A stretch of DNA of 38,494 bases from Malassezia furfur (GCA_052055015.1 JBQJIT010000060.1), one strand, 5' to 3'. Positions 1,032-36,983 are shown, counted from the stretch's first letter. Notes: generated from the letters alone by a model not told the origin. Numbers and translations are program-made.

Positions 1032-3596
1032 CTACGTTTTGGGCGCGGCTGTCGGCGGCGCGTCGTACGGCTCGCCGCGCGCCTGCCAGAGCGTGCGGCG
1101 CTTTTCGAGGAGCGCCGTGGCCCAAACGCGGATCTGCGGGTTGTGGATCTTGGGGATGGCACCCTGCCAGAACTGTTGCAAGTCACGTATGCCCTGCGCC
1201 TGCTCGTACTCAAACGTCTGCAGGCACAGCTCAAAGCAGTCGAGGTCCTTGACGAGCCGCGCCTCGGGCGTCGCACGCGCCTCGTACTCGTCCCAGAGGG
1301 CACGGATCTGCTGCGCGGCAGGCGTGTCGGCGAGTAGGTCGCGCGTCAGGTACTCGATCGCCGCATGCTCGCGCCGCGTCTTTTCCTCCTTGTCCACCTG
1401 GCACATAGGCGTCAGGTCGCCGACCTGTGCCTCCGCAAGGTCGTGCACCAGCGCCATCATCACGCACTTGCGCACATCGAGCTGCGTGTCATCGACAAGC
1501 ATCGCCAACATTGCCATGCGGTACATGTGGTCCGCAATCGATTCGGGCGCCGGCACACCGTGGTGGTACCATCCCGTGCGTTTCGACAGCTTGAGATTCT
1601 GGAGGTAGTGCATATAGTACAGCATCTTGTCGAGGTGCGCTGCATCCACACCGAGCGCCGCGTCCCAGCCCGTCGCCAACGCGCGCGGCGCACTTTCAGG
1701 GCCGAGCGAGACGCGCGCACTGGCGCTTGGCACAAACGGCACCGGCGGCACGGACGCACCGGCGACCGGCGCGGTCGACGCACGCACAGACGCTGGAACG
1801 CCACCCCCCGTACACATCGTCCGTGTCCGTGCCGACGCGGCACCGCCTGCATTCGACGTCCGCGCCATCGAAGGCGTCGCACTGCCTGGGCTAAAGGTCC
1901 GCTGCACGATCGGCGCCGCGGCCTGCGGCGATGCCCGCGTGGCCTTGCGCAGCGACGGCACCATCATCTTCTCCTTGTACGGTAGGCTCGTTTTCGGCTC
2001 ACGGTCGAGGCCATCAGAATTGTCGCGCGCAGGCCGTGCGATCGATACGGCGCGCGCAGGCTTCCACGGGACGGAACGTGCCTGGCTCCCGCTTGGTGCT
2101 GCGCGGTATGACGACGGATGCGCATACTGGTTGTTGCGGTGCGAGGGCATGTTGGAAGCAAGTACGCCCGCAAGCGCCAACTCCTCGTCGGCGTACCGGT
2201 CATGCGGCACATGTGTGCGCTCGTTATCGGCCCCGCGCACACCCTCGTACTCCTGCTCGATGCGATCGGCGCGGTCGAGGTGCTTGCGTGCCGCCTGCAT
2301 GCTGTGCTCGGTGAGCACCGAGAACGAGAAGCCCTGCGCACCCGTGAGCCGCTGTGACATTTCCGAAGCACGGGGCAGGCGCTCCACTCGGTGGTTCTTG
2401 GCCTTGCGGGGCGTGGGCGGCGGCCGCTCTGTCTCGTGCGCGAGGTCCTCGTCGATGGCGAACACAGGGTTTTCGTCGTTGCCGTCGTAGGACGGGACCA
2501 CGTCGTCGTCGACCGAGCCGGTCTCAGAATCGTAGCGCGTAGGATGCAGCTCCAGCGAGCTCGTTTCCTGCTTGTCGATCGAGTGTTCCGAGCGCGTCTC
2601 GTTCGCAGATGTGCGGTGCGCGGCATGCGCCGCCCGTGCGGCACGGCGCTCCTCGCGCTCTTCGGCATCGCGCTGCTCGAGGTGCCCCGGCAGCGTCCTC
2701 CCAAAGCGTGCAAACGATGCCGATAAACGCCCGACCGACGACGAGAGGTCCACGGCAGGCGGCGGCGCTCGCTTGGTAAACGTCGGCGCTGGCTCGGGGG
2801 CGTCCTCGGCGTCGGCAGGCAGCGCTGACATCTCGGGTTGCGCGGGCGTCGACTCGGACGGTGTTGGTGCCGAAGACGTCGCCGGTACAACGGCATGCGA
2901 CAAGACATACTCCTTTGCACTTGATATGGCGCTCTGCATGGTCTTTTGCGCCTTGTGGATGGCTGACTCGACCTCGCGCTGCACCTGGTCGTACTGCACA
3001 CGCAGCTGATCTAGGGTCGCAGCCTCAACCTTCTTGGTACGTGCGTCGGACGCAGCGAGGGTATCTTCGGTGAGGCGCGTGGGGACGCTGGGGAGGTGCA
3101 GCGACGCCCAAACCTGTTCGAGGTCGTGCAGTGTGTCGAGCGGGCGTGGTTGACCCGACGCAGAAGATAGACGCGGAAGCACAATGCCCAGGGGCGGGAC
3201 GTAGTCGGGCGACTGGATGCGCGCCTGCATATCGTCCTCGCCGATGCACGTATCATTGAGCAGCAGCACGTCCGAGGTGGGAAACGTTGGGTGCGCATGC
3301 AGCGAATACGACGTGGACTGCGTCGAAGGAAGATTCAGCTCACTCGCATACACATCCATCGAGCAGATTTTGCACGACACCACGTCAAGCCCCACCTCAT
3401 GCTCCTGCCTCGTCCAGAGTGGCAGCGCCTGTGGTTAGCCATAGCCAAGCAGGGCACGTACGATGGTGAGCGACGAAGGCGTGTTGAGGCGCACACGCTT
3501 GCTGAACGGCGCCTTGGCTTTTCCGATAACTGTACAACTCACGCGCACATTCAAACAGGGACACGCCCATACGCCGGACGCCGTGTCCGGGTCCAT
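1032..3596 (-). CDS. Cys-motif (CxC...CxxC)/coiled-coil/disordered protein fused to a C-terminal HD-domain 5'-deoxynucleotidase (HDDC2/YGK1/YBR242W family)
   Basis: ATG 3596 (MDPDTASGVWACPCLNV). A 33-nt intron at 3429-3461 (GTACGT...GCTAAC...CAG, in-frame stop inside) joins it to the 787-aa ORF. C-terminal motifs KRTGW, ESIADHMYRMA, MALVHDLAEAQVGDLTP and EARLVKDLD are typical of HDDC2. Confidence 0.8.
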
Positions 3597-3709
3597 GGCG
3601 AACGGCGACAACGCTCGCACGCACCGGTCGCGTGACTCAGCCGTATCGGCCGATCCTGGCAGATCGGTGATGAACGCATTGGCCAACGCAGATCGGGGCA
3701 AAAAAGACC

Positions 3710-4660
3710 ATGGCGAAGCGGCCGCGCCCACGCAAGCGCGCGAAGAGCAGCGCAGTGCCGGACAAGCACGAGCAGGCGGCAATTGCGCAACTCACAAAGC
3801 ACACAAAAGAGTATGAGGAACAAGCGCGCGCAGAGACGGCGGCCGAGGCGGCCGAGCCTGCGCACGGCGATGCTCTGTCGGCACCGTCCGTGGACACCAA
3901 CGAGGCAGCGCCTGTGCACGACAACGAGCGCGCGGATGCATCGTCAGACGATGAGGGAAAGCCACAAAAAAAGCGCAAGCGTACGCGTAAGCGCCGCAAG
4001 GAGGCCAAGCCCGGGCCGGACCCTGCGAGTGTGCCTGGTCTCAGCGAGGCAGCGCAGCGCGCGATTGTCTATGCACAGACCTACCTGCGCGACCGGGATG
4101 CATGGAAGTTCTCCAAGCCGCGCCAGAACTGGCTAATGCGCCATATTCTCTGGTCCGAACGCATCTTCCACGCCGCCAAGCCACTTGCAGATGTTGCGGA
4201 TGATACGCGGCGTACGCTTCCCGAAGATCTGCAGACCTGCATCGCGCCGGCGCTGCAGCTGCCGGACGAAGGGGCGTGGATCCCTGACGAATACGTGGCG
4301 GTCGTGGCCGTCTATTTGCAGAGCATCATGGGGCTTGGAAAACAGGTACGTCCCCACGTCCCAAGGCTCACCCAGCGCATGCTCGAGACACTCCAAGCTG
4401 CCGTGGATGCAAAGGTGCCGAGCGCGCCGGCGGAAACACCGCAGACGCCCGCTTCCACCGTACCAAGCGGAAACGAGATCGCCGAGTCAAGCGTGGAGCC
4501 GGCGACAAGCGAGGCCGAGAACACTGCGGCCGAGGCCACCGCGCCGACCGCCGATCCCGCCATGGCCGTGCACACCGATGCGAGCGCTTGGAATGCGCTA
4601 CGTGCAGCGCGTGCTGCCGAAACACTGCAGTGGATCGAAACGCGCGAGGCCGCTACGTAA
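3710..4660 (+). CDS. WKF-domain protein (C7orf50/Rbp95-like, probably nucleolar)
   Basis: WKFSKPRQNWL motif, basic N-terminal patches and IPDEY...YLQS. Probable in-frame 30-nt intron at 4346-4375 (GTACGT...GCTCAC.CAG). Confidence 0.8.
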   Translation: MAKRPRPRKRAKSSAVPDKHEQAAIAQLTKHTKEYEEQARAETAAEAAEPAHGDALSAPSVDTNEAAPVHDNERADASSDDEGKPQKKRKRTRKRRKEAKPGPDPASVPGLSEAAQRAIVYAQTYLRDRDAWKFSKPRQNWLMRHILWSERIFHAAKPLADVADDTRRTLPEDLQTCIAPALQLPDEGAWIPDEYVAVVAVYLQSIMGLGKQVRPHVPRLTQRMLETLQAAVDAKVPSAPAETPQTPASTVPSGNEIAESSVEPATSEAENTAAEATAPTADPAMAVHTDASAWNALRAARAAETLQWIETREAAT

Positions 4661-4670
4661 TCGCTATACC

Positions 4671-7600
4671 CTACTTGTAGAGCATCGCGCGGAATTGGTC
4701 CTGGTCTTTGGGCGCCGCAGCCGACGTGTCATCGTTGGAGGCCGACTCGCGCGGCGTGTGTACGCGCGCAAAGCCGAGTGCGCCCCCACGCCCGCCACGT
4801 CCACCACGCCCGCCACGCCCCCGCATCGCGCTCCGCGGCACGATGGGTGTTGAGGCTGCATCCTTTGGCGCCGACGTATGCGCCTCGACGGTGAGCGGAT
4901 GCCCTTGATACTCAACGTGTGCGCCGAGCACTGCACGCCCCGCCGTCTCGGCGTCGACGAGCTCCACGAGACTCGAGGCGCCCGCGTCGCCTTCGTGCCG
5001 TGTCGGCGTCCAGAACACACGCACGACCGAGCGTGGTCCCAGCGCCTTTTCGACTGCCTGCTGGATGAGCGCTTCTTGTGCATCGGCAGGCAAACCACGC
5101 ACGACGATCGAGCGTGCGTGGCGGTCGTCAGCGTTCTCGGCCTTCGGTGCCGAGGTTTTGCGCCCTGGCTCGGCGATCGATACCGCGATGCGGCGGCCGA
5201 GCAGTTCGGTGTCGTTCGTTGCCTGCTGTGCACGCTGGGCTTCAAGCGCGGTGGCGAACGTGACAAACGCAATGCCGCGGCTCTTGCCGTCGGGTCGTGG
5301 GGGGATCCGCACGTCCTGCACAGGTCCATGCGGTGCAAAAAAGGCGCGAATGTCTCCCGCCTGTACGCTGCGCGGCAGACCGGACAGGTACAGCTCACGC
5401 TCGTTCGCATGTGCATCAGAGCGAGCCTTTTTGTGCGCAGGATTCGATAAGTAGACTTGCAGCGCAAACTCGTCCGTCCAGTGCTTGCCGTGCTCGGCGA
5501 GCGCCGCCTGCGCCGAATCGGCGCGCACAAACTGCACGTAACAGAAGCGACGCGACTGGGCAAACGTGCGGCTCGGCCAGCGCACGTCAAAGAGCGCGCC
5601 GTATTTGCCAAATTGTGCACGAATCTGGTCGTCGTCTGTGTCCGGCGCAAAGTTGGTAACGTAAAGCGTGCACTGGTAGCTGGGTGCCAGGTGCACTTCC
5701 ATATCGCGAATGCGTTTCAGGTCGCGCGTCAGCGCCGCTGCGGCCATGTCGCGGTCGGCAAACTCCACAAGTGCCGCCGATGTCGCCGTGCCATCGGGCG
5801 CAGGCGCTTCGACGGCGCGAGGGCCCACGATCTCGACCATCTCGCCGCACTCGCGGAAGAAGCGGCGCAGCTCGACCGCCTCTGCGTCTGCAGGGAGACC
5901 GGCGACCATCACTGACGAAAACTCGCGGTCGCGTGCAGGGAGCGGTGCGTCGGTCCGCCCCTTTTTGGTATGCGTCTCCAGGGCATCGTCCGCCTTGCGT
6001 TTCTGGCTCTCGGACGGCGCCAGAGGGGGGCGCTCGGGAAGCGCGGCAGGCTCGGGGGCGGCATCGACATGCATAGCGTCAGCCACGCTGGGTTCGGTGC
6101 TCGTCTCGGGCACCGCCGCAGGGGCCTCAGTCGCTGCCGGCGCCTCGCTGTGCTGCGCGCTCGCTGCTTGCACCGCCGCCTCGCTGCGGTACTGTGCCTT
6201 GTACCACTGGCGCCACAGACAGTCCGACTCGGCCTTGCGCTTGCTTTCGGCATGCTCAATTTGTGCAATACTTCCCCGGGCATGCTCAAATTGCACCCAT
6301 GCATCGAGGAGGGGCATCTTACTCTCGTCGCCGTGCCGGGCGGTGCCAGCTTTGAACAGCTGCCGCGCGCGTGTATCGTTGTCGTGGCGCGCAAAGTACT
6401 GTGCGGCGCCAAGGTGTGCCTGGACACCGTCCGGCTGCGCCTGTACCGCATTTTCCCACACACCCTCGGCGAGAGGGTAGAGCCCCGTGGCGGCTTCGAC
6501 CCCCGCGGCGGCGCTCAGCGCCCGCGCCGCGCGCTCGATCCAGTCGACCGCATAATGCTCGAGCGTACACGTACGGTCAGGCTCGGTCTTGGCGAGCTGG
6601 CCTACCTCGCTGAGTGCATGTGCCAACAGCTCGTAGATGTGCATGAAGCGGTCAAGGTCGGCGTACAGCACCACGTCCTCTGGTGCAACGTGCTGCGCCG
6701 CGGCGACCTCGAGCGTGGCGTACGCACGCTCGCCGTCGATACGCGCTTGCAAGAAAGGCACAAGTGCCTCGACGCCGCCCGATGTCGGCAGCGTGCGCGA
6801 TGTCAGCACCTCGTCCCATACGGCATCAAACTGCGCCTTGGGCCGCTGCGCGCGTGCGAGCGTGTGGAGGTACAGCGCCCACAGCCGGCCGGATACGGGC
6901 AGGACGCGCGACGCGTTGCGGCACACATCGAGCTGCGCCGCGGCGTCGAGGTGCGCAGGGCTCGTAAGTTGCGCGTAGTCGAGCCACAGCGACTCGGGCG
7001 CCACACACAGCGACCGCGCCGCCACGCGCGCCGCCTGTTTCTCTCGCTCGAGCATTTTCTGGCTCTTGCGTCCCGCCTTGGCCATCCATGCCTTCTCCTC
7101 GGCGCGCGTAGGCGGACGCAATGCGTGCGCCTGCTCCTGGGCATCTTTTCCAAGCGGGTACCATCCAAACCGGTGGAGCGCGCGGCGGTATAGTGCGGCA
7201 CCGAGCTCTTCCTCGGTCGCGAGGTGCGATTTGTCCTTGGCCGTGCGCAGTGTCTTCATCCGGTGCGACTCCCAGTGCAGATATGGCATCCACTGCTCTA
7301 GGGACGTGTGCGGCGCATGAGCACTGGCCTCGTGTCGCTCGCGCTCGCGCCACATGCGCAGCGCATCTGCATACACCTTGTTCGCCGATGCCAGCAGCTC
7401 TTCGTAGGCGTCTGCGGGGAAGTAGGTCGACACCCAGCTCGAAAAGCGCTGGAACGTTTCGTCAAGCTGCGCGTGCGGCACACGCAGGCGTGCAACGTAC
7501 ACCTGGCGCACCAGCTCGCGACGCTCGTCGCTGCGATCAGCGTCGAGCAGGTGTTGTTCCCAGTCGCAGTAAACGCGCCAAATGACCGCCGACTCATGGA

Positions 7601-8195
7601 CATGGTATGCACACCGCGAGTAAAGAGTGCGCAGCGCCGTGCGCACCGAGTCCTCGCCTAGCAGCTCGTCGCGCTCGTCGGCGTCGGTGGGCAGCAGCGG
7701 TGCCAGCGCCTCGATGTCCGCGTAGGCGCCAACCGCGTGCAGCGCTGGTGCATCGCCCACACCTGTCCACGTCTCCAGCAGTGCACACACATCATATGCG
7801 TCGCCATCCACGGTTGTCACCGCGGTCTCGGGCAGGTCGCCCCACGCCGGTGTTGCGACGCGATGGTGGGCCGCGTACAGGCCGAGCCACAAACTTGCGG
7901 CCCGGACGAACAAGCTCATATCCAGCGAGTCCTGCGTGCTCTGGTCGTGTAGGTCGAGCAGCTCACGCAACGCGTCGGCGCCGCCCGCCTCGTCCTTCAG
8001 CACCCGGCGCGTTGCCAGGCTCAGGTACAAGTGCCAGTCGGTGGGACGCAGTGCAATATGCTCTGCCGTCTCTTCATACGCGCGCAGCAGCTCAGTGACG
8101 AGTGGTGCGCGATCCTCGGCTGCAAGGAGCTTGCGCTGCAGCGACCGCGTCCAGCTTTGGTAGCTCCATGGGTCGAGCGTCGGTGCCTGCGCCAT
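4671..8195 (-). CDS. PRP24: U4/U6 snRNP recycling factor Prp24/SART3 (HAT repeats, RRMs, C-terminal LSm-interaction motif)
   Basis: HAT-like helical N-terminal half. RRM motifs TLYVTNF/RRFCYVQF and ELYLSGL/RGIAFVTF. C-terminus KDQDQFRAMLYK matches the (S)NDDFRxM LSm-binding motif. ATG at 8195. Confidence 0.9.
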   Translation of the reverse strand: MAQAPTLDPWSYQSWTRSLQRKLLAAEDRAPLVTELLRAYEETAEHIALRPTDWHLYLSLATRRVLKDEAGGADALRELLDLHDQSTQDSLDMSLFVRAASLWLGLYAAHHRVATPAWGDLPETAVTTVDGDAYDVCALLETWTGVGDAPALHAVGAYADIEALAPLLPTDADERDELLGEDSVRTALRTLYSRCAYHVHESAVIWRVYCDWEQHLLDADRSDERRELVRQVYVARLRVPHAQLDETFQRFSSWVSTYFPADAYEELLASANKVYADALRMWRERERHEASAHAPHTSLEQWMPYLHWESHRMKTLRTAKDKSHLATEEELGAALYRRALHRFGWYPLGKDAQEQAHALRPPTRAEEKAWMAKAGRKSQKMLEREKQAARVAARSLCVAPESLWLDYAQLTSPAHLDAAAQLDVCRNASRVLPVSGRLWALYLHTLARAQRPKAQFDAVWDEVLTSRTLPTSGGVEALVPFLQARIDGERAYATLEVAAAQHVAPEDVVLYADLDRFMHIYELLAHALSEVGQLAKTEPDRTCTLEHYAVDWIERAARALSAAAGVEAATGLYPLAEGVWENAVQAQPDGVQAHLGAAQYFARHDNDTRARQLFKAGTARHGDESKMPLLDAWVQFEHARGSIAQIEHAESKRKAESDCLWRQWYKAQYRSEAAVQAASAQHSEAPAATEAPAAVPETSTEPSVADAMHVDAAPEPAALPERPPLAPSESQKRKADDALETHTKKGRTDAPLPARDREFSSVMVAGLPADAEAVELRRFFRECGEMVEIVGPRAVEAPAPDGTATSAALVEFADRDMAAAALTRDLKRIRDMEVHLAPSYQCTLYVTNFAPDTDDDQIRAQFGKYGALFDVRWPSRTFAQSRRFCYVQFVRADSAQAALAEHGKHWTDEFALQVYLSNPAHKKARSDAHANERELYLSGLPRSVQAGDIRAFFAPHGPVQDVRIPPRPDGKSRGIAFVTFATALEAQRAQQATNDTELLGRRIAVSIAEPGRKTSAPKAENADDRHARSIVVRGLPADAQEALIQQAVEKALGPRSVVRVFWTPTRHEGDAGASSLVELVDAETAGRAVLGAHVEYQGHPLTVEAHTSAPKDAASTPIVPRSAMRGRGGRGGRGGRGGALGFARVHTPRESASNDDTSAAAPKDQDQFRAMLYK

Positions 8196-8213
8196 CACGG
8201 CGATGGTCGCTGA

Positions 8214-9821
8214 CTAAGCCCTATGGACGCGCGCGACGCTCTGCATGGCCAGGCGCCGCGCTTGGGCCAGCGAGATGTGGTCCTGACGGTACGCGAGCAA
8301 CTGTCCATTGTCGCCCGTGACACGCACCTCGCTAGCAGTCGGGGTATCCTCCACGGCATCCGACGCCGCAAATGCATCGTCGTCATCATCCATGTCCTGC
8401 GTCTCACTCTGGCGGTAGCCGCCAGTGTGTAGTCGGTGCAGGTCGCCGGGGCGCTCCGATTGGAAACGCATCCCCGGCTGCCCCTGAAAAGGCGCAAAGT
8501 CGGAAATGATGCGCGGGGCGCTCGGCGCAGGCTTTGGTACGGTCTCGCTGCGCGCGTCGACACGGTACGGTAGCGATCCGCTGTAGTTGGCGCGTCGTGC
8601 GTCGAGGAATTTTTGGCTGAGCCGCGAACCGACCACCTTGCGGATGTGTGGGCGCGCGGTAGGCACATCGGGCGCCTGGCTCCAGATGCGGACATTGTGT
8701 GTGGATTCTGTGTGGGTTTCGTCAACGTACCTTCGCTCTCGCGGTAAATGCTCTCGACAATGAGCTGCTTGGTGCTCTCATTGCGCAGCAGCAGCTTCTC
8801 GTGCAGCTCGTGCGTGACTTGGTCCATAAGTGAAGACGATGGATCGTCGCCCATGCTCAAGCTTAGCGACCGCATGCGGTCCAGCACCGCATCACCTACC
8901 TCGCGGTGCAGCCGATCCAAGTCCATCACCTCGCCTGCCGCGGCAATCACAACATGGCTAAGCAGCGAAGCGGTGGTGAGTGGAACGAGCAAGCCGCCGG
9001 TGATGGTGACCAGCCCCTGGTAAAAGTCGACTGCATGCTGGTAACCGGACAAAGCCGGCTCACATGCAACAACAAACAACGGGATCCCACGCGCCGACAT
9101 TGAGCGGGCCAGCAAAATGGGGTCCTCATTGTCCGGCGAGCCGGACGGAAACCCATCGCCGTACTCGCCGATGCCATGCGGGGGTGCGTCAGTGACCAAG
9201 ATGGCCATTTTTGCCGCATCCGGTCGCCAATCCTGCGTGAGTAGAAGTACACGCACAAGATCACACGCGGCCTTGAGCGCTGCCGTCGCGGCTTCAGGTC
9301 CGTCGCCGCCGCCGGCCGCAAACAGCGAATTGAGGTTCTCCTTCATTTCGTACACGCTGGTGGTGAAACCGACTGGATGAGTCGTGGGGCGTACAGTTTT
9401 TCACAATGTACACATGGTCCTGCGGTGGGTGGTCACGGTACGCAATGAGCCCGACGCGCAGTGCGCCGTCTTGGGCAAGCAGCTCCGACTGCACGATCTG
9501 GTCACAGATCGTCTCGATGTTGTGCGTCGCAGACTGGGTAAGCATGCAGGCGGCGCACGTTGATACTGTGTAAGCAGGCGCACATACTAGGACCCCATGG
9601 ATCCGGTCGCGTCGATGATCTGGTGAGCGCTGCACGTACAAAGACCAAATCGAGCATACGGGTGGGCGTCGGCTCCGCGAATACGTTGCCGCTCGCTGTC
9701 TGCCCGCCCTGCATCCAGTCAGGCACGACTGACGGGTCCGCAGCTGCACCAAACATGCTGACCGTGAGCGGCGCACGTACCTGTAGGCGCCCCCGCGTGG
9801 GGCACCGGCGTGGTTCGCCAT
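8214..9821 (-). CDS. Stand-alone von Willebrand factor A domain protein (related to the vWA module of VwkA alpha-kinases), 8 exons
   Basis: Introns 9758-9780 (23), 9620-9639 (20), 9566-9587 (22), 9534-9558 (25), 9373-9394 (22), 9233-9256 (24) and 8708-8730 (23). Splicing gives LDLVFIIDATGSMGSYINSATHNI...RVGLIAYRDHPPQD...GGGDGPEA...LVTDAPPHG, a canonical vWA/MIDAS sequence. The first exon is less certain (alternative ATG at 9756). Confidence 0.85.
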
Positions 9822-12305: not shown

Positions 12306-13382
12306 CTATGGCCCACAGTATGCGACTATCATGCGCCGTGTCGCGAGGGGGCCATGCTGCAGTAGATAGGTAGCACTGTGCGAGCCAGGAAGGTGCACGA
12401 CGCGTTGTCGTATTACGGATTGCACGAGTAGGCCTAGCAACATGACCAGCATGCCGGCGCTCGGGTGCATGGGGAGCACCGTGCCTAGCGCTACTCCAGC
12501 GCTCATCCCGCCGATCCACGTGCGAATCAACCATTCGGTGTTCCACTCGCTTAGCACATCTGCGACGGCAACCAGGTGCGGCCGGTGCGTTGCGTCGTGG
12601 GCAGACGGGATCCACCGGGCAAGCTCAATGCCAAACGTCTGCTGTTTCCGCCGGTCAAGCGGGAGTCGCGAATCCCATACCAAAAGAAACCCGAGGAGCA
12701 GCATGGTGCTCACATTCGAGAACAGCAGCGCAACCGAGGGCAGGTTCCACGAGTAAGGGTGCATGTAAGGCGTGCGCGCACGATTGCACCAGATACGGTG
12801 AATGACAAGCCCCATGACCACGACGGCAGCGTGGTACAGCACCGACTCTACTGCCGTCGCGACCGTAACACGCACAACACCGTGCAATGAGGGAGGGAGA
12901 TGCGGGAAGTGCGCCACGATGCTCGACCACGGGCGAGGCTCATCCTCTGCAAGGCGAGGTACCTTTTCTCCAGCCACCACATAGGGATGTACGCCTGCGT
13001 TAGCCAGCCACCTACACAGACTAAACCAGCGAAGGTCTGGGTAAGTACACAACGTACAGCTCTCCACGAGGATGTAGGCAAGAAAATGACGGGCGTGCGT
13101 CCAGTAACGCCACGACATCGGCTGTGGACTGGGTATAGGGCTGGTGTGGCCACGGTTGTAAAGCAAATGACGGTATACGCGTGGCTTGGCCAACATCTGC
13201 GTAAGTCGGCCACATACGAGGTCGATGAACAGGATGGTCGGGCCAAACTCGAGATATGGATCAGCAATACGACCACAGCCGCCCTCCTCCTTCGACGCAC
13301 ATCGTGTCAGCGCGACATGTCCCGAGCCAAACGTCGTAAGCAACGCCGGCAGGGGACGTGCGCAGTGCACACACACCGGCAT
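12306..13382 (-). CDS. ARV1: ARV1 ER sterol/lipid homeostasis protein
   Basis: N-terminal Zn motif MPVCVHC...TRC...[11 protein letters not shown]...[17 protein letters not shown], followed by TM segments. Two in-frame 21-nt introns at 13197-13217 and 13037-13057. Confidence 0.9.
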
Positions 13383-24667: not shown

Positions 24668-24738
24668 CGCCGATACATGAGCCCAACAATTGAGAGTATA
24701 TGAGAGACATGTACGCTAAGCAGATTATCAAAAGGGAA

Positions 24739-24841
24739 TGCCCACTGGCTGGATCGAACAACCGACCTCGTCATGACCCAACGGCCAACCGCGAATCGCA
24801 GGAGGTACTAGTGACGCGCTCTACCACTGAGCTAAGCGGGC
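24739..24841 (-). tRNA. tRNA-Thr(AGT) with 31-nt intron (24775-24805)
   Basis: Same exons as copies 1 and 2 except anticodon AGT. Confidence 0.95.
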
Positions 24842-27939: not shown

Positions 27940-27987
27940 ACGTAGAACTGGGATTGATTCATGCATAGGGTATCTGTAAATGAGTAC

Positions 27988-28305
27988 CTAAATCAAGCGG
28001 AACATGTTTTTCTTGGTCTCCTTGCCGAGACCGCCCTCGTACTTTCCATCCACAATGCCGACTGCATGATGCCCGCCTTCGCGGTCCATCAGCCGCTCGT
28101 GGATTTCGCGGTCGCGGTCAGAGACGGAGCGCTGCGGCGCAGCATCGTCGCGCGGTGCCTCCTTCTTGGGCATCTCTTTCGGTTTGTGCGTGGGCTCCTT
28201 GCCAACGCAGCGCGTCGTGTGCAACACACGGCTCAGCGTGGGTACGCGGGACAATGCTTGCCACCCGCTCGACATCGTCGCTAGGTGGAGGCCTGTTCTG
28301 GACAT
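27988..28305 (-). CDS. Small uncharacterised protein, probably mitochondrial (start could be ATG 28275)
   Basis: 105-aa ORF with an Arg/Ser/Leu-rich, acid-free presequence-like N-terminus (SRVLHTTR) and a conserved-looking C-terminus DREGG...DGKYEGGL...KKNMFRLI*. It fills the gap between NHA1 and TAD3. Confidence 0.7.
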   Translation of the reverse strand: MSRTGLHLATMSSGWQALSRVPTLSRVLHTTRCVGKEPTHKPKEMPKKEAPRDDAAPQRSVSDRDREIHERLMDREGGHHAVGIVDGKYEGGLGKETKKNMFRLI

Positions 28306-28319
28306 TCGCCCTTTTTTTG

Positions 28320-30002
28320 ATGGCCGACAGTGTCACGGCCGCCGGCTGGACGGAGGTGACGCCGCATCTTAACGCGCTCGGCCTGCGCATCTGCGACACA
28401 CCCACGGCAGGCCGTGGTGTTGTGGCATCGCATTCAATTGCCCGTGATGTCGTGGTGGAGATTAGCCCCGTGCTCTTGTTCCGCGCCGAAGAATACCAAG
28501 CGCACGGACGACATACGCAGCTCGACTCGTATACGTTCGTTTGGGAAAAACGCGCGAACGGAAGTACCATGGCGCTTGCATTAGGCCTTGGCTCGCTTTT
28601 TAATCACTCACCGCATGCCAATGTATCCTACCAGCTCAATCGTGCGGCCCAGTGCATCCAGTTCCGTACGGTGCGTGACATCGCCGCGGGCGAGGAGCTT
28701 TGTATCTGCTACGGCGCCGGAAAAATGTGGTGGGAGACCGAAGATATGCCCACGACTCCGCCTGCGACCGAGAGAGACGAATGCACGCTATTTGGCCAGA
28801 TGGACCTAGCCGATGCGGACGATACAGGCTCCTCCGATACCCTCCCAGCCCCTACGTATGCGCGCGCGCCGGTCGACACCGACGCTCCGCTCTGGCGCAT
28901 CACCGCGTCCCCCGACCCACGCACGATGCCGCTCGAAACCATGCTCGCTTGGGCCTTGGATGCAGAGCCGCGCAACTGTGCGTCGGTTGCTCGCGTGCTC
29001 CAGGGCCTCACCAAGGACAGGGTCGTGCACAGTGGTACACAGCTGCGACACCTGCGCACGTTCCGCAAGGCGCGCGAAGTTACGCGTGTTGATACCGATG
29101 GGAATACACTTCCAGGGAATAACGACACCGACCGCCTTGCGGTGCTCGTCGCTGCGTATGGCCCACAATCGCGCGACGAGCTCGTCGCGCTGCTGGCGCC
29201 CGCGCTTGGTGATCTCGCCGTGCCCGAGCTGTATCTCGTGCTTGTGCCCGTGTGTGCCGCGCCAAGTCGTGCACGTCTCGCCGAGTGGGCGTCGGTCTGG
29301 CCATGTATTTTCTTGCCGCCCGGCGCCGGGCTCGCGACGGGGAATGCCTTGCCAGGAAGCGACGCGGCGCGTGCAGCGACGCTCGTAGACCGCGCACAGG
29401 ACGCAGCGCACTGGCAAGCGCCATACGCGACGGACTGGATCCGCGCAGGCCTTGCGCGGTGCCTCAAAACGGCGCTTGCGGCACATGCTGCCGGCGAGAT
29501 TGGGTGCGCTGCGTTCGTGACAGAGGCGCCCGATGCCCAAGGGCAGGTGGCGATTGCGCTCGATGCACACGACACACGCACACGCGACGCACACCCTTTG
29601 CGCCATGCGGTGCCGAATGCGGTGCGTGCTGTAGCCGAGTGGCGGGCGACACGGCGGACGGCACCGGTGGAAGGCGTCGCGGCGAACGGGCAGGACTACC
29701 TACTGACCGGCCTGTCGCTCTTTTTGACGCACGAGCCGTGCGTGTACTGCGCCATGGCGCTGATCCATTCACGCGTGCAGACCGTCTATTTTCTGTTCCC
29801 CGCTCCCCGCTCGGGCGGCTTTTGCGGTGCGCATGCCGGGCCCAACGGCCGCGCCGCGTGTCTTGGCGGCGAGGACGGAGGGCCGTATGCAATTCACGAG
29901 CAAAGTGGTTTGAACCACCGCTACGACGTGTGGCGGTGGGTGGACCCTAACGCGTTCCCAGAAGCCCAAGGACTCACTAGTGCGGTTGCGCTCGACTTAT
30001 AG
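28320..30002 (+). CDS. TAD3: SET-domain / tRNA-specific adenosine-34 deaminase subunit Tad3 (ADAT3) fusion protein, 560 aa
   Basis: SET motifs GRGVVA, SLFNHS, RDIAAGEELCICYG. Tad3 motifs LRHLRTFRK, WASVWP, HPLRHAV (pseudo-active HAV), YLLTG...THEPCVYCAMALIHSR and LNHRYDVW. One uninterrupted ORF. Confidence 0.88.
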   Translation: MADSVTAAGWTEVTPHLNALGLRICDTPTAGRGVVASHSIARDVVVEISPVLLFRAEEYQAHGRHTQLDSYTFVWEKRANGSTMALALGLGSLFNHSPHANVSYQLNRAAQCIQFRTVRDIAAGEELCICYGAGKMWWETEDMPTTPPATERDECTLFGQMDLADADDTGSSDTLPAPTYARAPVDTDAPLWRITASPDPRTMPLETMLAWALDAEPRNCASVARVLQGLTKDRVVHSGTQLRHLRTFRKAREVTRVDTDGNTLPGNNDTDRLAVLVAAYGPQSRDELVALLAPALGDLAVPELYLVLVPVCAAPSRARLAEWASVWPCIFLPPGAGLATGNALPGSDAARAATLVDRAQDAAHWQAPYATDWIRAGLARCLKTALAAHAAGEIGCAAFVTEAPDAQGQVAIALDAHDTRTRDAHPLRHAVPNAVRAVAEWRATRRTAPVEGVAANGQDYLLTGLSLFLTHEPCVYCAMALIHSRVQTVYFLFPAPRSGGFCGAHAGPNGRAACLGGEDGGPYAIHEQSGLNHRYDVWRWVDPNAFPEAQGLTSAVALDL

Positions 30003-30007
30003 TTGGA

Positions 30008-33000
30008 CTATGCCTCTTCGGCCTCGTAATCTTCGTCGTCATCCTCCTCGTAGTCGTCCTCCTCGTCCTCGTCTTCGCCGTAGTCGTCAAACTCGTCGTC
30101 ATCCTCGTAGCCGTCGCTCTCCTCTTGCTCGACGTACTGCTCAAGCGTCAGATCCTGCGGCGGCGATACGGGGCGCGGCGGGACGAGCCCCTCGAACGTG
30201 GTATATGTAGGCCCCGACGACGCGTGGGTGGCGGGGACCGCCGCGCTGCCGTGCGCCGGCACATGTGCCACCGTGCACGCTTGGGGTGTCGGTGCACGCA
30301 CACCGTCCGGTGTCTTGGTAGCCAAAAAGTCGGGGCGCATCGGCTTCGGTCCGGGGTCAGCAGGCGCCGCGGTGGGTGCAGCAGGCGCCAGTGCCGGCGG
30401 CGGCGGCGTCGCCTCGCGCAATGGCGCCCGATGCAGCACGACTGGTGCATCAATCCCTTCGGCGCGCATGTTCGATGCTGTGGCCTCGGTAACGACCGGC
30501 GTCGTGCGCACCTGCAGTACCGTGTCCATCGCGGCCACATGCGCGGCCCATTCCGCCTCGCTGTCGGCCTCGGTGGCTTCCGGCAGCGTCGTGTGCAGGT
30601 CGTGGAGCGAGTCGAGTGCGGTGCTTGTCTTACGTGGCGTGGTCATGCGGCTCTCGTCACTCAGCGGCGCGGGCGTCGCAGCATCTGGTCGCAGCTCCTT
30701 GAGTTCTGCCCCGAGTCGGTCGAGCTCGGCGAGGCGCCGTGCGGCGAGAGTACTGATGTGCTCTGCTGAACGGTACACCGAGTCGAGCGAGGGCGGACGC
30801 AGCGACGAGCGCCCCGACTTGTCGTTGGCAACCGTCGTCTTTATGGTATGCAGGTAATCTTCGAGCTCCTGCATCCGCTCGCGTACCATGTGCGTTGTTC
30901 GCCGGAGTCGCTGCTGGTTTTCCATATGCTCCGGGCCTAGGTGGCGCACATGCACCAGTTTCGCGAACGATGGGTCTTTGCGGGCGCGGAGGAAGCGTGC
31001 GGCCTCGTCGCGCTTGATTTCCGCCTTGAGCTGCACACTCTGGATACTAGCGACGCGCTGCTGGCTTTCGGCCACCGCCCGCTCCGTGTCCACAATGCTC
31101 GTCTGCAGCGCATGGGCCACCGACGCCAACGAAGGCAGGTCGCCAAATGTCCACGAAGCAGGGTCCTGCAGGTCGTCGACATGCTTCTCACTGCCGCACT
31201 GCTGCACCTCGTCGACAAAGCGACCCAGCTCGTTGGCACGCTCGTGCAGCGCCCTGAGCTCCGCGTTCACGCTCAGGTACACCTTAACGAACTCGCGCTG
31301 CAGCTCGCCGTTTTCACCCGACACATCGGGTGTCGGCACGGAGGGTAGGTGTACCTTGGGCACCCGCACGTCGCGGAGCGGTGTGCCTTGCGCACGAGCC
31401 GGTGCTGTGGGTGCTGCCGTCTTGCCAGGCGCTGCAGCAGCACTTGTCGTTTTCCACGCAGGTGCCGAGGCAGCCGGCACAGCGTCGGTCGGCTTGCCGA
31501 ACGAGAAGGCCGGACCGCCCTGCTTCGTATCGGCCGTGGGTGCATCGACGCTGCTCGACCTGGCAGACGAAGAGGAGTGGGGCGTCGGCGCCGCATCAGT
31601 CTTGGGCTTGGTCTCCTGAGCAGGCGTTTTATCCGCCGGCTTTGACGCAAAGAACGGGGCTTTGGATTCTTGTGCATCGGCCGGCTTTGCGAACGAGAAA
31701 CTCGGCGTGGCCTTGGGCGTGGTGCTCTCTGGATTAACAAACGAGAACGCACCAGCCGGCTTCTCGTTGCCGCCCTTGTCGTCCGTCTTGGCGAGCGAAA
31801 AAGCCGGCTTCGTCGGCGTCTCGGGCTTGGCAAACGAAAAGGCCGAGTTGGGCTTTGGCGCATCGTCACTCTTGGCAAAAGAGAACGCAGGTGCCGCACC
31901 ACCTGCCTTCTCTCCGCGGTTCGACTGCGCAAATAAGAAGGCCGACGCCTGCTTCGCTGCACCGCCGTCGTGCGGTGCAGCAAACGAGAAACCCGAGGTC
32001 GGCTTGGACGCATGCGTCGTAGGCGCCTTGACCGGTGTTGTACTTGCCCCTGAGGAAGTCTCATTGGGCTTGGCCTCTTCCGTCGGGGTCAAGGGGCTTT
32101 CTTGCTGGGCAACCGCTTCGGGCTGCACGTTTTCGAAACGATCGTCCGAAGCGCCTGCCTCCAACTTGGCGACCATTTCTTTCTGACCCTCGGACTCCTT
32201 GGCGGGCTCGGAAACCACCTCGACCTTGCTGACTTCTGTCGACTTGGGCGCATAACCAAGCTCCCTTTGATCTTTGGGTTGGTCGTTAGACGAGTTTTTT
32301 GCCGACATATCCGTCACAGGCTCCTTAGCATCGCCTTGTGGCATCGCCTTGGTAGCCGCCTCGTCCGACTTGGGCTTGGCAAACGAGAACGGCGATGCTT
32401 TGGAATCACCCGGCTTGGCAAACGAAGAGAAGGCAGTTGGCTTACTGTCGCCCCCTTTCTCTTGTGGCTTAGCAAAAGAGAACGGAGAAGACTCTTTCTT
32501 GTCCTCAGACTTGGCAAAGGAGAAGGAGGGTGCGCCTGGTTTCACATCTTCCTTCTTGTCCTCGGACCTGGCAAACGAGAAGACAGGTGCACTGGGTTTG
32601 GTATCTTCCTTTTTATCCTCCGGTTTGGCGAAGGAGAAGGCCTGCTTGCTTGACTTGCCGCCCTCCTTTTCCTCAGGCCTAGCGAAAGAGAAAGCAGGCG
32701 TGCTTGGCTTGGTGTCTTCCTTCTTGTCCTCAGGCTTGGCAAAGGAAAAGGCTGCCGCGCTGGATTTGTTCTCCTCCTTCTTGTCCTCGGACTTGGCAAA
32801 AAAGGTAGGCGCACTTGATTTGGCATCCTCCTTCTTATCCTCGGTCTTGTTGGCAAAGGAGAAGGTAGGGGTGCTTGGCTTGGCCTCCTCCTTTTTGTCA
32901 TCCGACTTTGCAAAGGAGAAGGCGGGTTTGCTTAGCTTGCCTTCTTCCTTCTCATCCGACCTGACGAAGGAGGTGCTAGGCGTATTTGGCTTACCATCCT

Positions 33001-35942
33001 CCTTCTCCGGCTTTGTAAACGAGAAGGCAGGGGTGCTTGGCTTGCCCTCCTTTTTGTCTTCGGGCTTTGCAAACGAGAAGGCAGGAGTGCTTGACTTGCC
33101 CTCCTCCTTCTTGTCTTCGGGCTTTGCAAACGAAAAGGCAGGGGTGCTTGGCTTATCATCCTCCTTCTCCGGCTTGGCAAACGAAAAGCTGGGAGGGTCG
33201 CCAATCTCCTTCTTCCCGTCAGGCTTTGCGAATGAAAACGGAGACTTCTTTGCCTCATCATTCCCTTGCGATGCCGTTTCGTTCGGTTTGGCAAAGGAAA
33301 ATGGTGTCGTAGGCTTAGCATCGTTACTCTCTTTTTGCTCGGCCTCAGGTTTGGCAAACGAAAATGCAGATGCATCCTTGGGCTTCTCCTGATCAGGCTT
33401 CGTCATCGGCGGGGACGGAGCCCCGTGCTGCTGAGTTTCCTTGGCGGGACTCGCGTCTTGTGCCGATGCAGTACCCTTGGAGGCTGAGCTGCTGGCATCA
33501 TCGCTTGTAGGCGTTGTGTTCTCTTTCTGTTGGCCAAACGAAAAGGTGGGTGTTTCTGCCGGTTTGTTGTTTTCACCCTGCTTGGTCTCTGGCTTGGCAA
33601 AGGAGAACGCCGACGCACTTCCACCAGTGCTTTCCGGCTTGGTAAACGAGAACGGTGACGATTTCGACGGTTCAGTCTGAGTCTCGTCCTTCTTCTGGCC
33701 GAACGAAAAGCCTGCAGAAGGTGCATTTGCCGAAGCGGCAAAGCCAAATGTAGCCGATTGCTTCTCCTTGTTCGCATCTGCCTCCTTCTTTGCCGTGGAG
33801 CCCATCAGATCACCCATCGAGCCAAATGAGAAGGCACCCTGACTTGCATTATCCAGTGGCTCAGCATCCATGCTCGATTCTTCCCCAGCCGTCTCCTTCT
33901 TCGGGGCGGGTTTGACACCCTCAAAAGCTGGCTTTCCTTTGTCTAGCGACTCGCCCGATCCAAACACCGAGGCGCCGTTGGTGTTGCTCACTGCACCAAA
34001 CCCAGTAGGTTTGCCTGCCATGGCACTAAATGCCGAGCCAGAAGCGGGCGCGGCTGCCGTTTTTCCGAACGCCGGCGCCGAGCCAAACCCGGAGGGCTGT
34101 CCAAATGCCGTGCTGGATGCTGTGCTTCCAAATGCCGATGGCACAGCTGCCTGTGACCCAAACGCCGAAGACTGCCCAAACGCGGGTTTTCCAAACGCCG
34201 AAGGCGTTGAAGTGCTTCCAAATGCCGGCGTACTCGATCCACTCCCAAACGCTGACGGCGTAGCTGTGCTGCCAAACGCGTTTGCTGGCTTCAATCCGCT
34301 GTTTGCGCTCCCAAACGCTGATGCACCACCGCCAAAGGCGCTGAAGCCGCCCGTCGAGGATGTCGAAGTCGATGCGTTCCCAAATGCCGAGGCACCAAAG
34401 CCCGAGGTTGAGCCAAACGCCGGCTTGGACGCTCCAAATGCGGATGGGGCACCAAACGCTGGCGTGCTGCTGGGCTGAGATACGCTCCCAAAGGCCGGCT
34501 TGGATGACGATGCTGGGGCGCCAAACGCCGGTGTAGCCGGTGCAGCCTGGGGCACAGCCGTTGAAGGCTGACTGGCAGGGGTGGAGTCGGAGGACGAAGG
34601 ACCTGTGCCGGGGGTCACCATGCCAGGGTATGGTTCCGAGGTATCTGTATTGATCACATGGTAGGCGAGCAAGACGCCATCATTGGTGTATACGAGGAGA
34701 ATGGGCATGGCTGGCAGCTTGGTCGAGGTGTCCTCACCCTTTGCCGCCGCGTTGGGGTCATCAACGGGATCGCTGGCCGTCAGATCAAATTCGAGGCCGA
34801 TCGGTGCCGTGTCTGAGGCATCGTCCGTCGACGAAAATGGCAAGGCGGGACGCGAGGTGTCCTCCAGTTCTAGCGCATTCCATGCGCTTGGCCCAGAGGC
34901 GTCCGCCTTGCAATCCAGCACGCCGACATCAGTGCTGGGTGTATTGGCCATAAACACGAGGTGCTTTTCCCGGTCCCACGCACGCAATGCGGCGATGTAG
35001 CGCCGGCCTGCTCGTCCGACATCGCCAAAAGGTGGTGCCACGTCGAGAGGAAATGCAGCATAGGTACAAGACTGCGACTTTGGGTCGCGCAGCACGACAA
35101 AAACATCGTATTCATGCACCATCTCCTCGGACACCGTGTTGTAGGTGACGATGAAGACGTGGTTTTCCAGCCAACGCACGTCCTCCACGAGAAGAGGGCG
35201 ATCTGCATCTGGCGGTGGTGCAAGTCGCGCTTTGACCTCACCCTCCGTGGTGCATTGGACAAGTTCGCCAGTGCGAAGGCCCAAGACGAGCTGCTTGCCT
35301 TTGGTCGACCACGCCGCGGAGGTCACGCCCGACTCGGGCAGGGACGCGACCCAGCTACCCGACCGCATGTCCAATAGGTGACACGTTCCCCCGGACGCAG
35401 CCGCAGGGGCCGCAGCATAGAGGGCCACGCACAACTCACTGCGGTCACCAGGGTTCGGAATGACGCCAACCAGATGCGCGCCGGCTGTAGGCGGTGCGGC
35501 GCGCCCGACAGGTCCATTCCCAGAGGAATCATACATAAGGATACTGCCGTCCGTCAGTCCACAGACGAGGCGTGTCTCCTGGTCGGCAAACGCGAGGAAC
35601 TGCACAGCGGCATATTCATGCGTCGACACCGACTTGAGGGGCTGAGCACGCGGCGTCGCACTGCGCTCTGCCCCTAGAAACGTTTTTCGCAGCGCTTGAA
35701 AAGCGTGTATGTCGAATCCTGAGTAAGCTGGGTCGTTGACGCACCGTCACGCGTAGTCACCGCCGCGATGCCAAGGTGGTTTGCGACGCTGAGCGCCAGG
35801 AACGGACGCGTCGCGTCGAGATCGAGCGGCTCAGAAAGACGCACATTGACGTCTTTCGCCAGCTGCCGTAGGACGAGATACTGGATGAGCGCGCTTCACG
35901 TACCGGCGCGGCGGCTTCGCCGGCCTCCGCACGAGACGCCAT
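30008..35942 (-). CDS. NUP159: FG nucleoporin Nup159/Nup146/NUP214 (beta-propeller, FG repeats, FSF repeats, coiled coil)
   Basis: ATG 35942, introns 35881-35903 (23) and 35719-35744 (26), then the long ORF. Propeller motif WSTKGKQLVLG, many SAFG/PAFG repeats, and a C-terminal coiled coil with HLGPEHMENQQRLR. Confidence 0.88.
32370..33370 (-). repeat. Degenerate coding tandem repeat (about 57-60 nt unit) encoding xxFSFAK(P/S)EDKKE
   Basis: Repeated (g/c)gcttggcaaa(c/g)gagaaggcagg...cttcttgtc units within NUP159. Confidence 0.85.
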
Positions 35943-35986
35943 GGCAGGTGTCGATGAGGCACGCGGGCGACGCTGACTAAACAAAA

Positions 35987-36983
35987 CTACGTCTGCTCGA
36001 GCTCAGTGAGACTGTGCGGGCGTTCGCGCATCCACTGCATGCGCGGCCCGCTGATCGCAAACTCGCTTACGCGGAACCCGTAGATCCGCGGGGTGTAGAT
36101 TCCCGTATGCGGAATTTTGCGGCCTAGCCGTGCGGGCGTCAGGGCCCCGGCACTTGGCGCCTCCGCCGCCTGCTCGGTGCGCGCCTGCTCTTGCTGCTCG
36201 CCCGACAGAGACGTGGAAGGCGCAGCCACAATCGACGGCGCAAGGTCACGGTAACATTGTAGTAAGAGATGTGGGAATGTGGTGCCAAAAAATGCGCCTG
36301 TGTCAATGGTGGGCACGCACCATCAATTCCGTGGAACCGGCTGCTGGGCGGAATGTAGGTATCGAGGCAGTTCGGGCAGTACAACTTCACCGTATCGAGG
36401 CCTGGGAGATCAGATCGCCCGCATGGGAGAACAAGCTGGGAATTGCAGAATACGCGTGGGCAAACGCCGAAATGGCCCTCTTCGTACTTGTCGACCTGCG
36501 CGTGAGCCTTGGGCCACCTACCATCTGCTGCATTCCCTGCCGCGTGAGGATATACCGCTGGTGAATCAGCCCGTACAAAAGCTCTGCCGACGACTCGACA
36601 ATCGACACGTCGGGGATTTTAAGCGAGTCTTCTTGCGGCTCGATGTCGAGGATCATCTCGAGCGCCTCCTTGTAGAACGGTACGAGGAAGTTTAGCCCTG
36701 TGAGGTTGAAATCGTCCTCGATGAAGTCTTCGGCAACCTCAGCGAAGTACTGGTGGCCCGCAAGCGAGCAGAACCACGAGATCCACGTCAGTCCTTCGGT
36801 TCCGCTTTCGGAGGGCGTTTCACTTTCTGGGTGAGTGATACACGCACCATAAATCTCCTCGTCTTCACCGAGGTCGCTCACAGTATCCATGTTCTGCGGA
36901 TCGCTCATATTCGACACATGCATCGCACGTTCCTGCGCTGCGATGGCGCCGTTCGCATGAGCGTCGCCGGCCCCGGACGCCAT
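35987..36983 (-). CDS. CKB1: Casein kinase II regulatory beta subunit
   Basis: WISWFCSLAGHQYFAEV..DFIEDDFNLTGL, LYGLIHQRYI, VKLYCPNC.D.Y, DGAFFGTTFPH and YTPRIYGF. Introns 36827-36847 (21), 36496-36521 (26) and 36298-36320 (23). Confidence 0.93.

Follow-up and report, generated by a model that had tools for sequence, protein, structure and literature searches.

Ultra-short GT-AG introns in twelve genes of a 38.5-kb Malassezia window: predicted signals, conservation and history

Genes and introns of the window

The DNA considered here is a stretch of 38,494 nucleotides (nt) from Malassezia furfur (GCA_052055015.1, JBQJIT010000060.1), referred to below as the window, and the subject is a set of very short GT-AG introns that interrupt twelve of its genes. 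The window, with a G+C content of 53–69%, consists of nuclear DNA from a basidiomycete yeast and is densely packed with genes; stop-to-stop open reading frames (ORFs) on both strands match eukaryotic Pfam domains (HD_3, WKF, RRM/HAT, VWA, Cullin, Arv1, WD40, Sas10, Fcf2, EPL1, Na/H exchanger, SET, NUP159 propeller, CK_II_beta, and PHD). Domains are cut at ORF borders: the Cullin match begins at profile position 105 and that of the exchanger at 180, and CK_II_beta is split into 1–89 and 147–182, a pattern that points to interrupted genes. The main exon of CUL1 shares 97% identity with M. furfur CDC53, compared with 84% for M. obtusa and 66% for M. sympodialis, and the gene order WKF-vWA-CUL1-ARV1-PHO88-FCF2-EPL1 is shared with Malassezia-like loci. 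Both observations place the window in this genus, with M. furfur as the closest named relative, and we judge its source to be M. furfur or a very close relative.

Gene models were rebuilt independently from a motif scan (GTNNGT..CTNAY..AG, up to 45 nt; 44 matches), a dynamic-programming gene finder that combines codon usage with introns of up to 200 nt and was trained on long ORFs, and hand curation against homologs. The automatic model missed ARV1 entirely and read in-frame introns that lack a stop codon as coding, and was therefore unusable alone. The final set comprises 34 GT-AG introns in 12 genes, extending from position 3429 to 36847. Sorted by size, the introns measure 20, 21 (four), 22 (six), 23 (seven), 24 (two), 25 (two), 26 (four), 27, 28, 30 (two), 32 (two), 33, and 109 nt. 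The median is 23 nt; all but the single long intron fall between 20 and 33 nt, and 22 of the 34 do not exceed 25 nt. A median below 30 nt, maintained across 12 genes in one 38.5-kb window, assigns the set to the ultra-short class. Retention would cause a frameshift in 24 of the 34 cases and introduce an in-frame stop in four whose length is a multiple of three, and the remaining six are in-frame and stop-free. Of the 33 short introns, 10 have a length divisible by three, as would be expected by chance.

This set agrees closely with a first-pass annotation of the same DNA, where 33 GT-AG introns had been proposed: the outer coordinates are identical, and the two totals lie one intron apart. The earlier figures of 32 introns at 20–33 nt, a median of 23 nt, and 21 introns of at most 25 nt are likewise reproduced to within one intron. 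Stop-free in-frame introns had been recognised as a class, which exists, although with six members and not five. They had been said to rest on splice signals; this applies to CKB1 intron 1, but for the other five the residues in question are lacking in homologs or orthologs. The claim that most introns are needed to restore conserved proteins holds, with homology support (homolog alignment, Pfam profiles, or orthologous DNA) for 30 of the 34.

Splice signals and homology support

All 34 introns begin with GT and end in AG, as U2-type introns do. The donors are GTACGT (14), GTGCGT (7), GTATGT (6), GTAAGT and GTAGGT (2 each), and GTGCGC, GTACGC, and GTATGC (1 each), and in the 33 short introns G occupies position +5 without exception and T position +6 in 30. 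A YTNAY element is found in every intron, the last one before the 3′ end being CTCAC (10), CTGAC (8), CTTAC (6), CTAAC (3), CTCAT (3), TTGAC (2), CTGAT (1), or CTAAT (1). Its A, the nominal branch A, is followed by 4–8 nt in 32 of the 33 short introns (the exception is vWA intron 7), most often by 5 nt (20 introns), 6 nt (six), or 7 nt (four), and is mostly preceded by 15–20 nt. The acceptor is CAG in 33 of the 34 introns, and no AG intervenes between the nominal branch A and the 3′ end. Neither a polypyrimidine tract nor an exon consensus was seen in this survey of intron anatomy. The overall layout is GTRYGT, a spacer of 4–14 nt, CTNAY, 1–4 nt, and CAG, and the shortest intron, GTACGTGCAGCGCTCACCAG (20 nt), is made up of a donor and a branch site with six bases between them, followed by CAG. 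These signals correspond well to those described in the first pass, namely donors that are mostly GTACGT, GTATGT, or GTGCGT (27 of the 34 here), and a CTRAC/CTYAC-like branch near the AG, which we describe as CTNAY, usually with 5 nt after its A, the polypyrimidine tract being absent.

The extended donor (GTRNGT class) and the branch consensus, with the branch A predicted by motif, also conform to the U2 type. U12-type introns are defined by a highly conserved ATATCCTT-like donor and a TCCTTAAC branch, and a donor of this kind is present in none of the 34 introns. Nor do the introns belong to the tRNA or group I/II classes; Rfam places tRNAs only at 24372–24841, where none of the 34 is located, and segments of 20–33 nt would be too short for a ribozyme fold.

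The signals were compared with chance by means of a strict pattern (GTRYGY, 4–20 nt, YTNAY, 1–5 nt, YAG, total length at most 35 nt, both strands), which gives 30 matches in the window against a mean of 4.26 (standard deviation 2.06, maximum 12) in 300 dinucleotide-preserving shuffles. Twenty-seven of the matches are model introns exactly, two are nested in model introns, and one is extra. The extra match, a 24-nt in-frame segment within the NUP159 ORF (GTGCGT..TTAAT..CAG), may represent either one more stop-free intron or one of the roughly four matches expected by chance.

Support from homology was assessed by aligning fetched homologs to the spliced translations, and by comparison with orthologous DNA obtained in one scan of metagenome contigs with the CUL1 alignment, which returned 45 loci. 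In three of these (L001–L003), the predicted CUL1 does not differ from the public M. sympodialis protein, L004–L007 represent a further species in which the gene order is retained and G+C is 51%, and L019 derives from a distant fungus. Removal of all seven vWA introns results in a protein that aligns without gaps at every junction with 12 homologs. The GSYIN segment, to which the 7-nt vWA micro-exon contributes, is conserved from Ustilago to Trametes, and the micro-exon is also present in L003. In this region the automatic model had proposed a 106-nt intron (9534–9639), which was replaced by introns of 20, 22, and 25 nt and two small exons; only the three-intron version yields the conserved IIDATGSMGSYIN block. 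A 25-nt candidate at 9709–9733 (-) with good signals was rejected, as its translation, SVVPDWM, is retained in other Malassezia proteins, and a vWA model that included it gave seven stops.

For CUL1, removal of six introns gives a protein of 757 residues that is gapless at all six junctions relative to Ustilaginomycotina and Agaricomycotina proteins, and NHA1 without its five introns is colinear at five of five junctions with NHA1 of Ustilago, Tilletia, Cryptococcus, Gelatoporia, and Fomitiporia. In ARV1, each of the three in-frame 21-nt segments coincides exactly with a 7-residue gap in 13 of 13 homologs, and the WKF orthologs in L004 and L005 lack precisely the ten residues that the WKF intron would encode. 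Pfam profiles run on single exons abut at two of two PHO88 junctions, two of three in CKB1, and at the one TOM22 junction, and the same scans gave no result at the junctions of HD, WKF, FCF2 introns 1 and 2, NUP159, and CKB1 intron 1. After splicing of FCF2 intron 2, a similar basic tail, LQ..R.A.A.Q..RR..S*, is obtained in the window and in L003. The short first exon of EPL1 (11 codons, MRNKKL.YKQK), its phase, and the GT donor are all kept in L003, where the intron is ~124 nt.

Exon 2 of NUP159 has no ATG, and MASRAEAGEAAAP comes from exon 1; the long ORF opens 12 codons before propeller profile position 27–28, and an upstream exon is therefore required. A PDB search with exon 2 gave no match at E ≤ 10. 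The HD-domain intron links a 45-codon ATG exon to an ORF of 798 codons, and the HD protein returned nothing at E ≤ 1 in a tblastn comparison with seven related loci. CKB1 intron 1 precedes the Pfam domain and falls in the N-terminus, which is acidic and variable. Coordinates of the introns, micro-exons, and neighbouring features are collected in Table 1.

Table 1. Predicted introns and micro-exons of the window, with neighbouring features, in window coordinates
Feature	Position	Strand	Length (nt)	Remarks
HD-domain intron	3429..3461	-	33	GTACGT..CTAAC..CAG; signals and in-frame stop inside
WKF intron	4346..4375	+	30	In-frame, stop-free; codons VRPHVPRLTQ
vWA intron 1	9758..9780	-	23	Joins MANHAGAPRGGAYS to MFGAA, cf. 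GGVYSMFG in Violaceomyces and Acaromyces
vWA intron 2	9620..9639	-	20	Shortest, GTACGTGCAGCGCTCACCAG; removal gives LDLVF/IIDATGSMGSY of homologs
vWA intron 3	9566..9587	-	22	Homolog alignment
vWA micro-exon	9559..9565	-	7	Between 22- and 25-nt introns; part of GSYIN
vWA intron 4	9534..9558	-	25	GTGCGC donor; required for GSYIN/SATHNIE as in homologs
vWA intron 5	9373..9394	-	22	GTACGC donor; YIVKN/FGFT junction agrees with homologs
vWA intron 6	9233..9256	-	24	In-frame, stop-free; its 8 residues in no homolog
vWA intron 7	8708..8730	-	23	Gapless against 12 homologs
CUL1 intron 1	9947..9968	+	22	GTAAGT donor; homolog alignment
CUL1 intron 2	10015..10040	+	26	GTATGC donor; homolog alignment
CUL1 intron 3	10398..10419	+	22	Homolog alignment
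CUL1 intron 4	11924..11946	+	23	Homolog alignment
CUL1 intron 5	12077..12098	+	22	Homolog alignment
CUL1 intron 6	12261..12285	+	25	Removal gives conserved C-terminus ..EGEKDVYAYVA
ARV1 intron 1	13197..13217	-	21	In-frame, stop-free; Pfam Arv1 1-48 and 49-87 abut
ARV1 intron 2	13037..13057	-	21	In-frame, stop-free; gap in 13/13 homologs
ARV1 micro-exon	13016..13036	-	21	Encodes LRWFSL, conserved in homologs
ARV1 intron 3	12995..13015	-	21	In-frame, stop-free; GTAGGT donor; gap in 13/13 homologs
PHO88 intron 1	14012..14034	-	23	Pfam Pho88 1-72 and 73-117
PHO88 intron 2	13851..13874	-	24	Pfam Pho88 73-117 and 119-179
FCF2 intron 1	18230..18257	+	28	Spliced SKREIQE/YRSK equals uninterrupted L004 ORF
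FCF2 intron 2	18642..18667	+	26	GTAAGT donor; orthologous L003 DNA
EPL1 intron	19236..19344	+	109	Only long one; exon 1 and donor conserved in L003
TOM22 intron	22734..22763	-	30	In-frame stop inside; Pfam Tom22 1-42 (exon 1), 39-136 (exon 2)
NHA1 intron 1	25326..25352	+	27	Sole TAG acceptor; homolog alignment
NHA1 intron 2	25435..25466	+	32	Homolog alignment
NHA1 intron 3	25610..25641	+	32	Homolog alignment
NHA1 intron 4	25773..25794	+	22	Homolog alignment
NHA1 intron 5	26016..26038	+	23	Homolog alignment
NUP159 intron 1	35881..35903	-	23	Signals and frames
NUP159 intron 2	35719..35744	-	26	Signals and frames
CKB1 intron 1	36827..36847	-	21	In-frame, stop-free; signals, GTGCGT..CTCAC..CAG
CKB1 intron 2	36496..36521	-	26	GTAGGT donor; Pfam CK_II_beta 1-88 and 90-144
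CKB1 intron 3	36298..36320	-	23	Pfam CK_II_beta 90-144 and 148-182
Extra strict match	31729..31752	-	24	In NUP159 ORF; further intron or chance match
HAT/RRM ORF	4674..8213	-		No intron in model
tRNA gene	24372..24475	-	~103	Tandem array
tRNA gene	24565..24667	-	~103	Tandem array
tRNA gene	24739..24841	-	~103	Tandem array
SET/deaminase ORF	27984..29999	+		672-codon open frame

Orthologous loci and public gene models

L003 covers genes that contain 21 of the window introns, and 14 of these recur there at the same position and in the same phase, but with a different sequence. Thirteen of these are short pairs, with lengths (window/L003, in nt) of 23/24, 20/23, 22/24, 25/23, 22/24, and 23/25 for vWA introns 1–5 and 7, 22/28 and 26/27 for CUL1 introns 1 and 2, 21/24 for ARV1 intron 1, 23/24 and 24/23 for the PHO88 introns, and 28/25 and 26/26 for those of FCF2. 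Both positions and sizes are thereby common to the window and another Malassezia species, with means of 23.5 nt in the window and 24.6 nt in L003, and ranges of 20–28 and 23–28 nt. The pairings of vWA intron 1 and CUL1 intron 1 are based on a conserved upstream exon and a motif in L003, not on a full model: the vWA upstream exon MAAPRGGV.. is followed there by a 24-nt motif, and the conserved CUL1 upstream exon ..PALPPSN by a 28-nt intron motif.

Seven window introns are absent from the L003 DNA, i.e., vWA intron 6, CUL1 introns 3–6, and ARV1 introns 2 and 3. As both introns that flank the ARV1 micro-exon are missing, this segment is not a separate exon in L003. Conversely, L003 has at least two introns that the window lacks, one of 24 nt in vWA and one of 24 nt, in-frame, in CUL1, and intron presence thus varies between Malassezia lineages. 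For the PHO88 ortholog in L004 (12906–13596 (-)), the automatic model predicts three introns, of 26, 30, and 31 nt, and a possible fourth of 72 nt; length accordingly also varies somewhat within the genus, with the window at the short end.

Two of the CUL1 introns that are absent from L003 have counterparts in the distant fungus L019. CUL1 intron 3 shares codon and phase with a ~73-nt intron (about 24–97 in that locus), and CUL1 intron 5 with an intron of 57 nt (about 2161–2217). Because of these shared positions, at least these two introns are old, and have shrunk in the window lineage and been lost in that of M. sympodialis; for the two, a recent gain is ruled out by the ancestral positions. 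The longer of the L019 introns has a pyrimidine-rich stretch after its CTGAC.

It had been anticipated in the first-pass annotation that default gene predictors would mis-annotate these genes, and this is borne out by public models from seven Malassezia (M. furfur, M. obtusa, M. psittaci, M. brasiliensis, M. yamatoensis, M. sp. CBS 17886, and M. sympodialis), which skip exons, retain introns, or start inside an intron. M. furfur CDC53 (677 residues) is truncated by 40 residues at its N-terminus, lacks five residues at junction 3, and skips the entire 42-residue exon that separates junctions 4 and 5. Two M. furfur models of vWA both lack IIDATGSMGSYIN, and with it the metal-binding motif. Introns are retained or misplaced in models of M. 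obtusa, M. psittaci, and M. sp. CBS 17886, and the public M. psittaci CUL1 has an 8-residue insert at the junction of CUL1 intron 4. The NHA1 models of M. brasiliensis, M. yamatoensis, and M. psittaci have a frameshifted or unrelated N-terminus. In M. sympodialis CUL1 (P0014), a 24-nt GTACGC..CTCAC..CAG segment (L003 4388–4411 (+)) is read as VRASYSRQ, a sequence found in no other CUL1 homolog, and the public start ATG is located inside an apparent 28-nt first intron (L003 2202–2229 (+)). Comparative or drug-target work that relies on such models inherits these errors.

Interpretation, related systems and neighbouring features

Based on the signals, the homologs, and the orthologous loci, the introns are very probably spliceosomal GT-AG introns of the ordinary U2 type, pared down in evolution to little beyond three recognition signals. 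The whole intron would be recognised as one unit (intron definition), with U1 and U6 pairing with the strong GTRYGT and U2 with CTNAY, and CAG would be picked by its closeness to the branch, the 3′ splice site being the first AG past the branch A. If the introns are real, as the homology indicates, the spliceosome must form lariats with ~15–20 nt before the branch A and ~5 nt after it. Excision at the RNA level, a lariat at the A named here, and any change in the spliceosome parts are what we infer from the DNA.

Some observations weigh against this assignment, or at least against parts of it. Seven of the 34 model introns are missed by the strict pattern, because the donor is GTAAGT or GTAGGT, the spacer is too short, the branch is unusual, or, in EPL1, the length is 109 nt. 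The branch A is a motif-based assignment throughout, and it is doubtful in vWA intron 7, one of these seven, where the last 14 nt contain no YTNAY and the only such element is a TTGAC near the donor. The Pfam test for TOM22 is approximate, with profile positions 1–42 and 39–136 on the two exons. Four introns (HD, NUP159 introns 1 and 2, and CKB1 intron 1) are placed by signals and frames alone, and an ATG ~24 codons into the long HD ORF could start the protein without any intron. Furthermore, the lengths describe the coding-region introns found here, with introns in untranslated regions (UTRs) and further in-frame stop-free ones being undetectable.

The last point bears on the suggestion that the shortness is an artefact of ascertainment, such that longer introns were overlooked and the true median is nearer to 30 nt. 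UTR introns are invisible to protein homology, the models were capped at 200 nt, and both the published mean for M. sympodialis and the published median for M. restricta are 30. We nevertheless regard an artefact of this kind as very unlikely. The models of CUL1, vWA, NHA1, ARV1, PHO88, and FCF2 are colinear over the conserved regions examined, which leaves no room for missed coding introns, and the search up to 200 nt found one long intron only; the 13 M. sympodialis-like introns are themselves 23–28 nt, and a mean of 30 fits a mode near 24 with a tail. The probability is next to nil that the frame breaks are assembly or sequencing indels, or mark pseudogenes, with GT..AG segments picked by hindsight, even though GC-rich DNA is rich in open frames and GT..AG pairs and a loose scan gave 4251 frame-joining candidates. 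The strict motif exceeds the shuffles seven-fold, with 27 of its 30 matches being the frame-restoring segments exactly, the same positions hold different GT-AG segments of 23–28 nt in an independent assembly of another species, and two of them hold long introns in L019. In addition, 10 of the 33 short introns are multiples of three and mend no frameshift.

A narrower alternative concerns the six in-frame stop-free segments (21–30 nt), some of which might be retained or partly spliced coding inserts that give rise to two protein forms. Retention leaves the frame open in these six of the 34 introns, CKB1 intron 1 is situated in a variable N-terminus, and public annotations read such segments as protein, including the VRASYSRQ of M. 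sympodialis CUL1. Against this, the exact residues are missing from every homolog or ortholog examined for five of the six (vWA intron 6, the three ARV1 introns, and the WKF intron), and full donor, branch, and CAG signals are present in all six, so that coding inserts seem unlikely.

Assuming that the segments are spliced as U2-type introns, a further possibility is that the M. furfur lineage has reached the mechanical floor of this type of splicing with a retuned spliceosome, which we put forward only tentatively and with some doubt. The 20-nt intron would then represent the sum of donor (6 nt), spacer (6 nt), branch site (5 nt), and CAG, and the nearly fixed spacing of 5 nt after the branch A and the 7-nt micro-exon between introns of 22 and 25 nt could be seen in the same light. 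Retuning might involve, e.g., a choice of 3′ splice site without pyrimidine-tract binding or long-range second-step factors. If the floor has indeed been reached, M. furfur, which is culturable and transformable, would lend itself well to studies of what sets the minimum size of an intron.

The presence of very short introns in Malassezia genes is stated in a review (PMC7426719). The curated annotation of M. sympodialis from 2017 lists 4493 genes and 5350 introns with a mean of 30 bp, of which 5271 (99%) are supported by RNA sequencing (RNA-seq), mapped with the intron size set to 10–2000 bp (PMC5389616). As these introns are RNA-seq-backed, introns of such kind are spliced in the genus according to that source. 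For M. restricta, 2150 introns with a mean and median of 37.2 and 30.0 have been reported (PMC9241646), and minimum intron lengths of 20 and 15 were used in its annotation (PMC6473144). The view of novelty taken in the first pass was thus correct in treating short Malassezia introns as known, but underrated the published extent, and the window introns are a somewhat more extreme case of a trait already published for the genus. As in other Malassezia, they are of the GT-AG type with the same signal layout, and of the 21 that can be compared, 14 share their positions with M. sympodialis-like DNA; they differ in size, with a median of 23 nt against the 30 published for M. restricta, and are ~1 nt shorter on average than their M. 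sympodialis orthologs. Among open-licence full texts in PubMed Central and bioRxiv, we found no paper on branch geometry, a 20–23-nt mode or 20-nt floor, or micro-exons in Malassezia. What is added here is the signal geometry, a conserved 7-nt micro-exon, shrinkage from longer ancestral introns, and a concrete list of annotation errors.

Similarly small introns are known from unrelated lineages. Those of Stentor coeruleus are 15–16 nt, with the branch A at position 10 of 15 and 5 nt after it (PMC9505925). The window introns resemble them in being near-minimal GT-AG introns without a polypyrimidine tract, and in the 5 nt after the branch A, which applies to 20 of the 33 short introns here. Unlike in Stentor, where the branch region is weak and U-rich with 9 nt before the A and the size is fixed, CTNAY is strong in the window, 15–20 nt precede the A, and lengths vary from 20 to 33 nt, in an unrelated lineage with a GC-rich genome. 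Introns below 30 bp are also found in myxozoans, with medians of 22 bp in two species and 27 bp in Henneguya, and the 2026 paper on these shortest animal introns names ciliates, microsporidia, and dicyemids, but not Malassezia, in its passage on known exceptions below 30 bp (PMC13644364). The median lengths in microsporidia, dicyemids, and myxozoans are in the same range as in the window (PMC13644364), but these are obligate parasites with reduced splice-site motifs, whereas donor and branch are strong here, in a culturable skin yeast. Malassezia thus offers thousands of such introns with strong signals, in contrast to the degenerate signals of the parasites. Moreover, two CUL1 introns can be traced to ancestors of 57–73 nt, which is a clear case of shrinkage, and not of gain, in an organism amenable to culture and transformation.

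Introns of the Saccharomyces type carry strong GTATGT and TACTAAC signals. The window introns are similar in having an information-rich 5′ splice site and branch site, and in relying little on a pyrimidine tract. They differ in number and length, as Saccharomyces has few introns of hundreds of nt (mean 397 bp, PMC8476143), whereas the window has 34 in 38.5 kb that are more than 10 times shorter.

Three additional features of the window are noted. A 672-codon open frame combines SET and cytidine/dCMP deaminase domains, and may represent a single fused gene or two genes read through. The tRNA genes, ~103 nt long and 96% alike, form a tandem array of three; each has an insert of 31–33 nt in the anticodon loop, and they score 50–51 bits with Rfam. 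In our alignment, two copies show the anticodon CGT and the other one AGT, and we tentatively read all three as tRNA-Thr. ARAGORN reports no tRNA in the window at all, probably because these three carry introns. A long ORF with HAT/TPR-like repeats and three RRMs (Pfam) has a layout that we read as that of a SART3/Prp24-type U4/U6 recycling factor, which would place a splicing-related gene next to the introns in question.

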